From an uncultured Bacteriovoracaceae bacterium (GTDB taxonomy: Bacteria > Bdellovibrionota > Bacteriovoracia > Bacteriovoracales > Bacteriovoracaceae), in contig CAXGUD010000061.1 in NCBI GenBank assembly GCA_964012805.1, positions 1 to 18,304 on the forward strand: a stretch of DNA of 18,304 nt. The letters are read 5' to 3'. Positions within the stretch are counted from its first letter, which is position 1. Each line of letters opens with the position of its first letter. A model generated the notes under the pieces. The model searched no databases. It was not told the origin of the DNA and saw only the letters and a program-made list of their open reading frames with translations. Positions 2,916 to 9,377 of the stretch are shown in pieces. Both the position numbers and the translations under genes were made by a program.

Positions 2916-3977
2916 TTAAAACCCTCTGAATTGAGAGACGAACCTTAAATCTCCTGAATGAAGATGCCTTATATCCTCAATTCCATATTTCATCATAACT
3001 AATCTATCCAGTCCCAGACCAAAAGCGAAGCCATTATACTCATCTGGATCAATTTTCCCTGCCTTTAAAACATTTGGATGAATCATACCGCAGGGTAATA
3101 CCTCGACCCATCCGGTCTGCTTACATACAGAACATCCCTTCCCTCCACAAATTAGGCATTTCATATCTAGCTCGAATCCAGGCTCTACAAAAGGAAAGAA
3201 ACCTGGCCTCAACCTAACTTCAACTTCCTTTTTAAAAATCTCTCTCAAAAGAGTCTTCATAAAATAGATAAGATTTGAAACTGAAATATCTTTTCCTACC
3301 ATCATCCCTTCTAATTGATGGAAAACCATCTCATGAGAGGCATCGGTTCTTTCACAACGAAAAGCCTTTCCCGGAGCGATGAACCGAAAAGGAGGCTTCC
3401 TTGAAGTCATTCCTCTTACCTGAATGCTTGAGGTATGTGTCCTAAGAAGGTGCCGTTTTCCATCTGGAGTTTTATCATCATGAAACCAAAAGGTATCTTG
3501 CATATCTCTCGCTGGATGATCCGAAGGTATATTCAGGGCCTCGAAATTGTGAAATTCATCCTCAATATGAGGACCATCCAAAACATCAAAGCCCATTGAA
3601 ATAAAGATATCTTCAATTTCTTGTTGAATAATAGTGACGGGATGAAGGCCTCCATGGAAATGACCTTTATCCTTCATAGAATCCCTGAAAGATATATCTA
3701 TTTTGCTTTTTTCTAGTTTTTGATTTATTTCTTTCTTTTCAATTTCTGCTAATTTTTGAGACACCTGCTTTTGAACTTTATCTTTTATGTCATTAGCCAG
3801 TGGGCCTATTACTTTTTTTTCTTCAACAGTTGCTTGTTTGAGTGATTTTAGAGTTTCTGTTAAAGCCCCTTTTTTTCCAAGATACTCTGCTTTAAGATTC
3901 AAAACTTCAGCTTGGTTTTTCATTAATGCCACTTGTGATTCGAACTTTTTATAGAGTTCTTCCAGTTTTTCCTTCAT
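2916..3977 (-). CDS. pheS: Phenylalanine--tRNA ligase alpha subunit
   Basis: 353 aa; HNFEALNIPSDHPARDMQDTF, LRTHTS, FHQLEG, FFPFVEP, GFAFGLGLDRLVM, plus the CxxCxxxxCxxC insertion. Confidence 0.98.
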   Translation of the reverse strand: MKEKLEELYKKFESQVALMKNQAEVLNLKAEYLGKKGALTETLKSLKQATVEEKKVIGPLANDIKDKVQKQVSQKLAEIEKKEINQKLEKSKIDISFRDSMKDKGHFHGGLHPVTIIQQEIEDIFISMGFDVLDGPHIEDEFHNFEALNIPSDHPARDMQDTFWFHDDKTPDGKRHLLRTHTSSIQVRGMTSRKPPFRFIAPGKAFRCERTDASHEMVFHQLEGMMVGKDISVSNLIYFMKTLLREIFKKEVEVRLRPGFFPFVEPGFELDMKCLICGGKGCSVCKQTGWVEVLPCGMIHPNVLKAGKIDPDEYNGFAFGLGLDRLVMMKYGIEDIRHLHSGDLRFVSQFRGF

Positions 3978-4013
3978 CTTTTATCCCACTTTATTGCTAC
4001 TAGTTGTCGGCCC

Positions 4014-4042
4014 ATATTTTCACGCTCAACACCTAAAATCAA
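4014..4042 (-). promoter_or_regulatory. Possible pheST promoter
   Basis: TTGATT-17-AAATAT with an extended TG, between the terminator and pheS. The -10 is weak. Confidence 0.3.
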
Positions 4043-4056
4043 TGGCAAAATTGATG

Positions 4057-4090
4057 AAAAAAACCAGAGGGGCCAAGGCAACCCCTCCGG
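4057..4090 (-). terminator. Intrinsic (Rho-independent) terminator
   Basis: CCGGAGGGGUU-GCCUU-GGCCCCUCUGG: 11-bp stem with three G.U pairs that form only on the minus strand, followed by U7. Confidence 0.85.
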
Positions 4091-4146
4091 CAGGAAATTT
4101 TATAGGAATTAATCTGACTAAAATATCAGTTCCAAAATTATACCAG

Positions 4147-4221
4147 TTACCAAATAAGTGTTGATAAAATCAACAGGGCCAAAAAAATAAAGCCCAAAAC
4201 ATCCCCAAAAAGCGAGAACAT
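4147..4221 (-). CDS. Possible 24-aa hydrophobic micropeptide MFSLFGDVLGFIFLALLILSTLIW
   Basis: ATG at 4221, TAA at 4147-4149, AGGAG 11 nt upstream, single transmembrane-like stretch. U-rich sequence can give such peptides by chance. Confidence 0.3.
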   Translation of the reverse strand: MFSLFGDVLGFIFLALLILSTLIW

Positions 4222-4499
4222 GCATAAAGACGCTCCTAAAGAAAGGTCACGCCCCGCCCAAACCCCAATTTATAGAATAATCCTCCAAAAAAAAATTAAA
4301 CCAATGGGTTCGATCTCTAACTATCCTTGGGGAAGGATAAAAAAAATTTTAAAAAGAAAAATGGGTTGATTAAATCCCCAAAGGTCCTCCTAAAAAACTG
4401 AACACCTCACGAGGATGAAGCTCTCCACAACACCCCGACCCGTTTTGTCACCGGCCCCCACCATAAGCACAGACCGCTGAGGAGTCAATTTTTCTCCGC

Positions 4500-4582
4500 T
4501 TCGGCAAACCCAAAACTCTTATGGAAAACCACTTAGAGCGGGCCTTTGTTCCCAGCACTTTCATAACTGGTCACCTTTGTCC
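4500..4582 (-). promoter_or_regulatory. c-di-GMP-I (GEMM-I)-like riboswitch aptamer, variant
   Basis: Minus strand GGACAAAGGUGA-CCAGUUAU-GAAA-GUGCUGG-GA-ACAAAGGCCCG-CUCUAAG-UGG-UUUU-CCA-UAAGAG-UUUU-GGGUUUGCCGAA. It has a GAAA-capped P2, a CAAAG junction, a P3 with a CUAAG/UAAG tetraloop-receptor-like loop and a UUGCCGAA end. Equivalents of Vc2 G20, A47 and C92 are present. Confidence 0.65.
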
Positions 4583-4685
4583 ACGGGCTTACCTACTTAT
4601 CAAAGCGCAAACCTTGCTCATAGATCAACGAAAAAATATCGTAGACCCTAGAGGTAGCTTTGGTTTCCCAAGTAGGCTTAGCCTC

Positions 4686-4714
4686 ATATTAACGCATAGA
4701 GAAACAAAAATCAA
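4686..4714 (-). promoter_or_regulatory. sigma70-type promoter for the intergenic RNA
   Basis: -35 TTGATT (4709-4714), 17-nt spacer, -10 TAATAT (4686-4691); predicted start near A4679, just before the first RNA helix. Confidence 0.55.
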
Positions 4715-4716
4715 CA

Positions 4717-5265
4717 TCACTTTAAATCAAGAATTTTTTTATGAAGGACTTTTCGAACTGAGTTAAAAAATTTAATTATTTCTTCCTCCCTATAATCAGG
4801 GTAAGTCCATAAAAGAGGCTTATAGCTTTTGTTTTGGAACACGTAAGTCAAATCACTATAAACACCTTTTCCTAAATAAATTCTATGTGAATAAGGTTTT
4901 CCAGTTGCTAACTGCATATTTTCTAAAGAGAGGCACCCCAAATCAATATTAACTGTTCTAAACTTCACTCCCATCTTATCCTGGCTCATTTCAATTTCTT
5001 TTCCAGTAGACCAGACCTTTCCTTGAACAAAGCTTTCACGGTTTTGAAGGTTAAGACTGACTCCAAATAATCTTTGTAGAAGATTTGAGTCTCCCATTTC
5101 CTTTGAGTAGTATTTTTTCATGGGGAAAAATGGATGATCAAAGTAAAATGACTCCCCCCATTTTTTTTCCCACATAGTTTTTATTGAATCTTCACTAACA
5201 AGGTCCCTTCTAAAAAGAAAGCTCGCAAAGAAAAAAGTTTTTGTTGGTGCTTGAAGAAGACTCAT
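4717..5265 (-). CDS. DUF4416 family protein
   Basis: 182 aa; YYSKEMG, RTVNIDLG, LATGKPYSHRIYLGKGVY and WTYPDY motifs typical of DUF4416. Confidence 0.85.
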   Translation of the reverse strand: MSLLQAPTKTFFFASFLFRRDLVSEDSIKTMWEKKWGESFYFDHPFFPMKKYYSKEMGDSNLLQRLFGVSLNLQNRESFVQGKVWSTGKEIEMSQDKMGVKFRTVNIDLGCLSLENMQLATGKPYSHRIYLGKGVYSDLTYVFQNKSYKPLLWTYPDYREEEIIKFFNSVRKVLHKKILDLK

Positions 5266-8339: not shown

Positions 8340-9377
8340 TTAAAGGAAAATAGCTTCTTTTTTGCTGCTTAATAAAAATGCAAGAAAAACCTTTCTATTA
8401 AGATCTCTTTTATAAGGCATAGATGTTACACGCCAAAAGCTCCTGTCCCACAGAAAACTTCTTTCCAAACTCTTGAAATCTTTATTTTTGAAAACAAAAG
8501 TTTCTACGTAATCGCGCGGTAAAAAGAGAAAACTTTTTCTATAACCTTTGATTAGCTCTTTATAAGCTCTTTTAACCTTATTTACATATTTATTTCTATT
8601 TCCTACACGAAGACCTTTTCTAAGCCTTTTTTTAACACCACCTGGACCCATGTTGTAAGCAGCTGTAGCATGGATATAATGACCATTAAAATCTCTGAGT
8701 ATTTTTTTAAGGTAAAAAGCCCCCATTTCTATATTTGGCTCTGGCTTTTTAGTTATTTGAATAGCAGACCTCAAACTCTTCACGGGCTTCTCAAGCAGCC
8801 CTGCTAAAAAGTAACCTGTTCGAGGCATTATTTGCATCAATCCCCTTGCGTTAACATAACTTCTTGCTTTCGGGTTAAAATGACTCTCTGTCCACATTAC
8901 TGCAAGAACCCAAAAAGGATCTACTTGGAACTTTTCTGAATAAAATAGCGTTGTTTTCAGAAAGGGTTTAAGTTTTCCTTTAAGACCAGCTGGAACAGAA
9001 GACAAGATAAGGTCTTCAAACTCTACCTTCGAAAGTTCACTTATTCTTGAAATATCCACTTCTTGAAAAGTTTTTCCAACTGAATCAAAGTTATATGTAG
9101 GCTCCTTAAATGGATAGACTTCTTCTAAAGGTGTACTTTCAAGACCTTTATTTTTAATTTCAGCCTTCGTGAGAATAGTTGCAGGCTTTTTTGAAATAAA
9201 AAGATGAGAAAGGGAGTTAAATAAGTGAGGCTTCTCTAATAATAGATTCGAAACAAGGCCCAAATACAAAATAAATGCGACAGTAGAAGATAATATAGTT
9301 ACAGCAAGGTATTTAATGCTAAGGAAAAATCTCGAAACAATATAATCAGTGCTTGAAATTACTTTTTCTTTGGACAA
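8340..9377 (-). CDS. Lytic transglycosylase (SLT domain) with N-terminal membrane anchor
   Basis: 345 aa from a TTG start; hydrophobic N-terminal segment, catalytic ES (WTESHFNP), GLMQIMP and AAYNMG motifs. Confidence 0.88.
   Translation of the reverse strand: MSKEKVISSTDYIVSRFFLSIKYLAVTILSSTVAFILYLGLVSNLLLEKPHLFNSLSHLFISKKPATILTKAEIKNKGLESTPLEEVYPFKEPTYNFDSVGKTFQEVDISRISELSKVEFEDLILSSVPAGLKGKLKPFLKTTLFYSEKFQVDPFWVLAVMWTESHFNPKARSYVNARGLMQIMPRTGYFLAGLLEKPVKSLRSAIQITKKPEPNIEMGAFYLKKILRDFNGHYIHATAAYNMGPGGVKKRLRKGLRVGNRNKYVNKVKRAYKELIKGYRKSFLFLPRDYVETFVFKNKDFKSLERSFLWDRSFWRVTSMPYKRDLNRKVFLAFLLSSKKEAIFL

Follow-up and report, generated by a model that had tools for sequence, protein, structure and literature searches.

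A separately transcribed RNA with a variant c-di-GMP-I aptamer and a candidate mini-ORF between a DUF4416 gene and pheS

The window, by which we mean the whole 18,304-nt stretch of DNA that was analysed, carries on its minus strand a DUF4416 gene (4717..5265; PF14385, E 2e-37) with pheS downstream of it (2916..3977; PF01409 and PF02912), and the 737-nt spacer between the two contains an entire RNA gene. All features of this RNA lie on the minus strand. Its sigma70-type promoter (4686..4714) consists of a -35 element TTGATT (4714-4709) and a -10 element TAATAT (4691-4686) separated by 17 nt; the match extends to 8 of 12 consensus positions and falls below the threshold of a generic promoter scan. 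The promoter had been proposed in a first-pass annotation of this DNA, and the family bears it out, with TTG-16/18-TAnnnT located no more than 140 nt before the aptamer described below in 48 of 61 copies, compared with a mean of 13.9 and a maximum of 21 in shuffled sequences. The +1 predicted from the promoter is A4679, and a contig from one RNA run (X1) reaches this same position, a contig end that gives a weak hint. From the predicted +1 the RNA folds as a single long irregular hairpin (4591..4679, z -3.75), in agreement with the helices that the first-pass annotation had placed there. This hairpin is found in this genus only, and comparison of three sequences revealed a double change in 3 of its 34 pairs. 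We considered and rejected a second aptamer within it: the comparative model R1 had no match here even at E<=10, and the apparent tetraloop hairpin was not conserved in two same-genus genomes.

The 3' portion of the RNA (4092..4369) is rich in U and G, forms short hairpins and contains the Shine-Dalgarno-like sequences GGAGG (4286-4282) and AGGAG (4237-4233). It leads into an intrinsic terminator (4056..4091, z -3.51), whose 13-bp stem (4091-4063) and U run agree with the strong terminator noted earlier and are conserved in both same-genus genomes. The folding energy of the 636-nt region was better than that of 20 of 20 shuffles (z -4.48), and no minus-strand ORF inside the RNA exceeded 38 aa, consistent with the earlier view that no conventional protein gene lies within it. 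Downstream of the terminator is a possible separate pheS promoter (TTGATT-17-AAATAT, 4014..4042, minus strand), a motif present in both same-genus genomes. Thus, the spacer holds a separately transcribed RNA of ~620 nt that runs from 4679 to ~4057 on the minus strand and has its own promoter and terminator. Elsewhere, a promoter-like site with an extended -10 lies in the 3' end of the RNA upstream of the terminator (4137-4164, minus strand) and is incompletely conserved in the same-genus genomes. ARAGORN returned nothing relevant on the window, the tmRNA of the genome being located elsewhere. An SLT-domain transglycosylase gene (8340-9377, minus strand) adjoins cmk, and the remaining window genes look housekeeping (pheST, an rfaE-like kinase, a heptosyltransferase and sucAB-lpd).

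Among the 24 RNA runs listed, 21, from 15 marine studies, contained 27-47% of the words of window positions 3900-4900. Contigs were mapped onto the whole window for four of these 21 matching runs, from four marine metatranscriptome studies, and each run yielded one near-identical contig over the RNA: 4177-4679 (depth 106), 4144-4662 (depth 123), 4144-4631 (depth 5.4) and 4131-4634 (depth 12). These contigs reach down to 4131-4177, with the last 70-120 nt of the RNA outside their coverage; at 4131-4177 and 4631-4662 they stop close to strain differences or adapter sequence, and these positions were not counted as RNA ends. A further near-identical contig in run X2 (3803-4064, depth 3.4) extends from the terminator into pheS. 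Apart from this one, the four runs contained no near-identical long pieces on DUF4416 or other genes, and, as the runs were selected for carrying this stretch, absent coverage elsewhere proves nothing. The RNA is thus present in RNA libraries, and the contigs fit a discrete RNA, no more, carrying as they do no information on RNA start, end, strand, level or phase. The discrete transcript that the first-pass annotation had called for is supported to the extent that near-identical contigs cover most of it, its ends, strand and level being beyond what contigs can tell.

Directly downstream of the 5' hairpin, positions 4590 to 4493 match a comparative model of a variant c-di-GMP-I aptamer, with G14, G20, A47, C92 and C93 (Vc2 numbering) at 4581, 4575, 4547, 4504 and 4503, respectively. 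In the window, the aptamer has a GAAA tetraloop with a receptor-like motif and a GA/GA loop in P2, and C44 is missing. A DNA search of 60 relatives gave four matches, of which the two in same-genus genomes covered the whole spacer and the other two just 4590-4490, and spacers behind DUF4416 (best 30 loci) contained a recurring element; the sole named DUF4416 relative high in the match list was from a Bacteriovorax sp. (45% identity). The aptamer model was made from 18 aligned copies with a structure set by hand. It returned one strong match (E<=2e-9) in 61 of 150 genomes, representing 33 genera, of the family to which the window belongs, most likely Bacteriovoracaceae; 43 of the 61 matches lie outside the training sequences, and four weak matches (E>=0.004) were left out. 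No paralogue of the RNA was found in the window's own genome. Beyond the family, the model matched in 5 of 127 genomes of the phylum, and all three of those tested pass RF01051. A pattern search of metagenomes identified 21 stretches, 16 with the full aptamer and 5 that looked chance-like by eye, and viral contigs gave 0 matches to the pattern.

Comparison of these copies indicates that the fold is conserved. Across 66 aligned matches, 90% of cells were paired and 21 of 27 pairs exhibited double changes, a level reached by 0 of 500 shuffles; covariation was 0.63 versus 0.22 in shuffled alignments and <=0.12 with slid partners, in an alignment that was fitted to the model and among relatives that are not independent. 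The conservation and covariation asked of relatives by the first-pass annotation are therefore present. The three-helix junction with tetraloop and receptor is that of the c-di-GMP-I class, and G14, G20, G21, C46, A47, A48, C92 and C93 were invariant in 61 of 61 copies; these are recognised c-di-GMP pocket positions in the available text of PMC3764141, including the G20, A47, A48 and C92 pocket and the G14-C93 pair that typify the class. The C44-G83 tertiary pair of the class is lost, with C44 missing in 61 of 61 copies. Rfam returned no relevant match on the window at gathering score or at E<=10, and RF01051 alone had no match at the aptamer site in the window's genome even at E<=10, so the Rfam search proposed earlier came back empty, while the c-di-GMP-I-like aptamer claimed at the same time stands as a c-di-GMP-I-type fold recovered by comparative modelling. 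At the orthologous site, RF01051 matched in five relatives among the 101 family genomes searched, two of them narrowly over the cut-off (36.5 and 36.9 bits). Taken together, sequence comparison shows 4590-4493 to be a variant of c-di-GMP-I with covarying pairs, one that Rfam overlooks in the window.

Two other aptamers came to light during these searches. L163 (G077:C29:2320-2391) is a distinct riboswitch of the c-di-GMP-I type in which position 20 is C; it is located upstream of a gene for a secreted-looking protein and is the only RF01051 match in the family sample away from the studied site. L125, from a genome in another family of the phylum (G244), combines a near-canonical c-di-GMP-I aptamer with a domain-2-like element, a Shine-Dalgarno sequence and a 20-codon ORF starting Met-Gly, an arrangement that is possibly the ancestral form.

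The aptamer is followed by a second structured element, domain 2 (4392..4494, z -2.51), in which a long helix closes a predicted three-way junction. When tested per sequence, the closing helix scored above shuffled sequences in 45 of 55 copies, and RNAalifold on a sequence-only alignment did not recover it; a domain 2 hairpin with a GGNGA loop covaries. The 5' strand of P1 (CCCGU) is complementary to RCGGG within domain 2, which in the window is the ACGGG at 4443-4439, and in 33 of 55 copies all five bases of this rival complement can pair. P1 is preceded by C in 55 of 61 copies, even though a G that could partner it in P1 is present in just 10. The P1 fold and the rival fold were within 6 kcal/mol of each other in 38 of 42 copies; on the same scale, the rival fold wins by 6.5 in the window. 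Folding gives no direction, since the P1 state left the Shine-Dalgarno sequence more accessible in 15 of 42 copies and the rival state did so in 16.

Directly 3' of domain 2 lies a Shine-Dalgarno sequence (AGGAGG, 4386..4391) and behind it a putative mini-ORF, TTG-Gly-Ile-stop (4370..4381). Together with domain 2, the Shine-Dalgarno sequence and this three-codon ORF (4381-4370) go beyond the first-pass annotation. Automatic detection found a strong Shine-Dalgarno sequence behind domain 2 in 55 of 60 copies (one truncated locus was excluded), and in 39 of these 55 a start codon 3-9 nt after it was followed by a stop within three codons, compared with 3.8 (maximum 10) in shuffles and 4.4% of the genome's 6753 GGAGG sites. 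With four Shine-Dalgarno positions set by hand, which also enter the 3'-motif, rival-pairing, promoter, fold-energy, Shine-Dalgarno-openness and neighbour counts, the mini-ORF is present in 43 of 58 copies from 20 genera and absent from 15; it thus occurs in 20 of 31 Shine-Dalgarno-bearing genera, with Pro-stop in 16. The family majority is start-Gly-Pro-stop: the residues after the start are Gly-Pro in 30 copies, Gly-Ile in 3, Asp-Pro in 2, Phe in 2 and others in six, and the window's genus has Ile instead of Pro before the stop. Starts are TTG (31), ATG (9) and GTG (3), all three stops are used, as are four Gly and three Pro codons, and the Gly codon varies among same-clade metagenome copies. 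The Gly-Pro codons can pair with GGGUC of domain 2 in 33 of 55 copies (null 17.7, maximum 27), and part of the Gly-Pro conservation may therefore be structural, although the mini-ORF also persists in L020, a locus that lacks the aptamer. Behind the second GGAGG, there was no consistent ORF across copies.

These observations lead us to consider it somewhat probable that the RNA responds to c-di-GMP as a riboswitch and thereby controls how ribosomes load onto a mini-ORF within the same transcript. In the ligand-free state, CCCGU on the 5' side of P1 would pair with ACGGG of domain 2; with c-di-GMP bound, P1 would close and domain 2 could fold, and this refolding would alter how ribosomes reach the Shine-Dalgarno sequence and the frame start-Gly-Pro(Ile)-stop. 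Because the mini-ORF peptide is too short to be a product, the output would be ribosome occupancy. A C-terminal proline is a known and frequent cause of stalled termination according to the available text of 10.64898/2026.10.08.757592, and slow termination at Pro-stop could hold a ribosome on the RNA, where it might set RNA lifetime, completion or the exposure of 3' motifs. Several observations weigh against this reading: C44 is lost throughout the family, folding favours neither direction, 15 of 58 copies with a Shine-Dalgarno sequence lack the mini-ORF, and the window's genus has Ile in place of Pro. The comparison shows the family, its fold, the invariant pocket, the promoter, the Shine-Dalgarno sequence, the mini-ORF and the rival helix as sequence features, while the identity and binding of the ligand, translation, stalling, the direction of the switch and its final effect are inferred from them.

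An RNA in this position could instead serve pheST, as a leader or attenuator (T-box-like or through c-di-GMP-controlled read-through), or be a mere spacer of the rfaE-DUF4416-pheST mRNA. pheS is the next gene in 41 of 61 copies, and the X2 contig bridges the terminator and pheS; however, a terminator-like hairpin lies between aptamer and pheS in 36 of these 41, the terminator in the window is >400 nt from the aptamer, and in 20 of 61 copies another gene or none is next, 10 of these 20 with a gene on the opposite strand. The lack of an Rfam match to a T-box and a position before the synthetase gene that is not fixed (41/61) argue against this reading too, as does the <200-nt distance between DUF4416 and pheS in 13 of 21 aptamer-less loci. 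We judge it very improbable: pheS is the neighbour of the RNA and not its target, and the stand-alone RNA of the first-pass annotation is upheld over a pheST spacer by its own promoter (48/61), by the hairpin before pheS and by the 20 copies with other neighbours. A separate question is whether the ligand of the variant aptamer might be 3'3'-cGAMP or some other nucleotide, or whether the aptamer has turned into a ligand-free scaffold. cGAMP riboswitches carry A20, and the invariant G20 of this family speaks against cGAMP, as does a set of pocket bases that all belong to the c-di-GMP class (available text of PMC3764141). In favour of a different ligand, the P2 loop and C44-G83 are remodelled. 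In Vc2, breaking C44-G83 nearly abolishes aptamer folding, with <10% folded (PMC11705072, in the part available), and since C44 is absent in 61 of 61 copies, the aptamer may bind weakly or recognise another ligand. Furthermore, one of three GGDEF domains in the window's genome (G000:C62:2109-2582) differs, in a comparison by eye, from the other two in carrying Thr instead of Asp at the specificity position; Thr there marks hybrid cGAMP makers (available text of PMC9140294), making this protein a candidate hybrid cGAMP synthase and suggesting that cGAMP may be present too. On balance, a ligand other than c-di-GMP, or none, seems to us distinctly improbable.

Two further readings concern what the RNA does. 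As a passive c-di-GMP store or sponge, it would bind the messenger in bulk and free it on decay, its Shine-Dalgarno sequence merely stabilising the RNA. Such a role was proposed for merRNA (available text of PMC3627812) and would suit a single-copy gene with its own promoter that is represented in part in 21 RNA runs from 15 studies; for a store, however, the rival helix and the three-codon start-stop spacing are superfluous, and the missing C44-G83 speaks against maximal affinity. Moreover, the 3' module survives without the aptamer in four relatives: between their DUF4416 and pheS genes, L020, L024, L026 and L031 retain a Shine-Dalgarno sequence, ACAUU and CANGGA motifs and a terminator-like hairpin, and L020 the mini-ORF as well. 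We regard this role as unlikely for the RNA as a whole, though c-di-GMP storage may be a competing or secondary function. The earlier picture of a riboswitch that lacks a target and only stores its ligand is not supported as it stood, given the conserved candidate expression platform, Shine-Dalgarno sequence and mini-ORF behind the aptamer, and merRNA has an ORF too (see below). Alternatively, the RNA could be a riboswitch-gated sRNA with a trans-acting 3' part that either sequesters CsrA at CANGGA and GGAGG sites or pairs its GACAUUC motif with start-codon regions. In 44 dereplicated 3' regions, GACAUU was present in 22 (null 2.7, maximum 7), CANGGA, which we take to be the CsrA consensus, in 15 (5.4, maximum 13) and a second GGAGG in 18 (6.2, maximum 14), and CANGGA also occurred in 19 of 30 merRNA-type 3' regions versus 2.5. 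Of the 150 family genomes, 142 carry csrA, as do 4 of 4 from Bdellovibrio; the gene being near universal, its co-occurrence is uninformative, and in the window's genome it lies behind flagellar hook genes in what we read by eye as flgL-csrA-fliW. Against action in trans, the 3' part in the window lacks GACAUU and has a single CANGGA inside a stem, and the many GGA motifs in loops typical of CsrB/Rsm sRNAs were not seen in the 44 regions, where GGA in total was not enriched (127 versus 112.5, maximum 134). We hold this alternative to be rather doubtful as a rival, and a trans-acting 3' part would be compatible with ribosome gating as its final output.

The first-pass annotation had likened the RNA to merRNA of Bdellovibrio, which the available text of PMC3627812 describes as without conservation outside Bdellovibrio and without a conserved ORF behind the riboswitch. 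The motif from that paper retrieved the nine named Bdellovibrio loci among 15 matches, and RF01051 scored over its cut-off in 96 of 101 genomes of the merRNA family, nearly always in one copy. The window RNA had no sequence homology to merRNA (best blastn E 1.4), and merRNA loci adjoin an mrp/apbC-like ATPase gene (named by eye) instead of lying between DUF4416 and pheS; we therefore rejected homology, and the proposed alignment failed, while the idea of an analogous stand-alone riboswitch RNA with a different architecture in a predator family was supported (aptamer in 61/150). We surveyed 39 merRNA loci (the best 30 plus the nine named, which are closely related) for ORFs. An AUUCCCC motif precedes the terminator in 37 of 39, a stop directly after Ser-Pro is read through it in 33 of 37, and a Shine-Dalgarno sequence with an in-frame ATG is present in 27 of 37, compared with 2 and 2 for the other two frames. 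These merRNA loci (L040, L041, L043-L049, L133-L162) thus appear from their sequences to carry a frame-preserved short ORF of 7-18 codons behind the aptamer, ending in (W/R)F(H/Y/N)SP-stop, typically F-H-S-P-stop, directly before the terminator, which adds to the original merRNA paper, where none was found. Since the Ser-Pro codons are invariant, an RNA-level role of AUUCCCC is also likely, and a ribosome stalled on this ORF would cover the 5' arm of the terminator. Separately, AGGAGG is present <=120 nt upstream of the merRNA aptamer in 30 of 30 loci, and L040-L049 and several of L133-L162 have a second Shine-Dalgarno sequence with a ~12-14-codon ORF 5' of the aptamer, often His/Asp-rich and ending P-K-stop.

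Both families, as predicted from their sequences, share the layout of aptamer, Shine-Dalgarno sequence, short Pro-stop ORF and terminator. We tentatively raise the possibility, itself doubtful, that both main families of Bdellovibrio-like predators use second-messenger-gated ribosome docks, each a single riboswitch RNA with a Pro-stop mini-ORF as its only 'gene'. Such docks would be abundant RNAs which, as the predator switches between hunting and growing, park or release ribosomes or else set the timing of their own decay. If this were true, merRNA would be a translated riboswitch RNA and not a passive store. A second, non-alignable RNA family in sister predators bears on the function of merRNA, which has been unsettled since 2013, and the shared layout is open to codon-by-codon mutation in the tractable B. 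bacteriovorus. Literature searches that included merRNA/Bdellovibrio, Bacteriovorax riboswitches and Halobacteriovorax non-coding RNA, covering few subscription journals and no supplementary motif lists, gave no description of the window RNA.

Compared with known systems, the aptamer has the P1-P2-P3 junction, the GNRA-type tetraloop and receptor, the G20/A47/C92 pocket and the G14-C93 and G21-C46 pairs of RF01051, whereas it differs in having a GA/GA loop for AAA/GAC, no C44, a 22-45 pair that is often U-A and no protein gene under its control. As a natural c-di-GMP-I aptamer without C44-G83, it offers a direct test of the rules of that fold, and it exposes a blind spot of RF01051. CsrB/Rsm-type sRNAs are CsrA sponges, and the RNA resembles them in having some CANGGA and GGAGG sites in a host that carries csrA; in contrast with them, its sites are few, GGA is unenriched and an aptamer and mini-ORF stand in front. 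TnaC is a leader-peptide system with a short ORF ending Pro-stop; here, too, translation rather than the product would be the likely signal, and Pro is the last residue before the stop in most copies with the mini-ORF. The mini-ORF has only two or three codons, however, so no tunnel-sensing peptide is expected, and it has a riboswitch upstream and no operon downstream. From merRNA, the window RNA differs in that its variant aptamer lies near the 5' end, whereas the canonical aptamer of merRNA lies in the middle or 3' half; its ORF has 2-3 codons and ends >100 nt before the terminator, whereas that of merRNA has 7-18 codons and touches it; domain 2 is present in this family and absent from merRNA; and attack-phase expression is known for merRNA alone. 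Like merRNA, it is a stand-alone aptamer transcript of predators with no controlled protein gene downstream, combining one c-di-GMP-I aptamer with its own promoter and terminator, a Shine-Dalgarno sequence and putative short Pro-stop ORF behind the aptamer, and CANGGA motifs.
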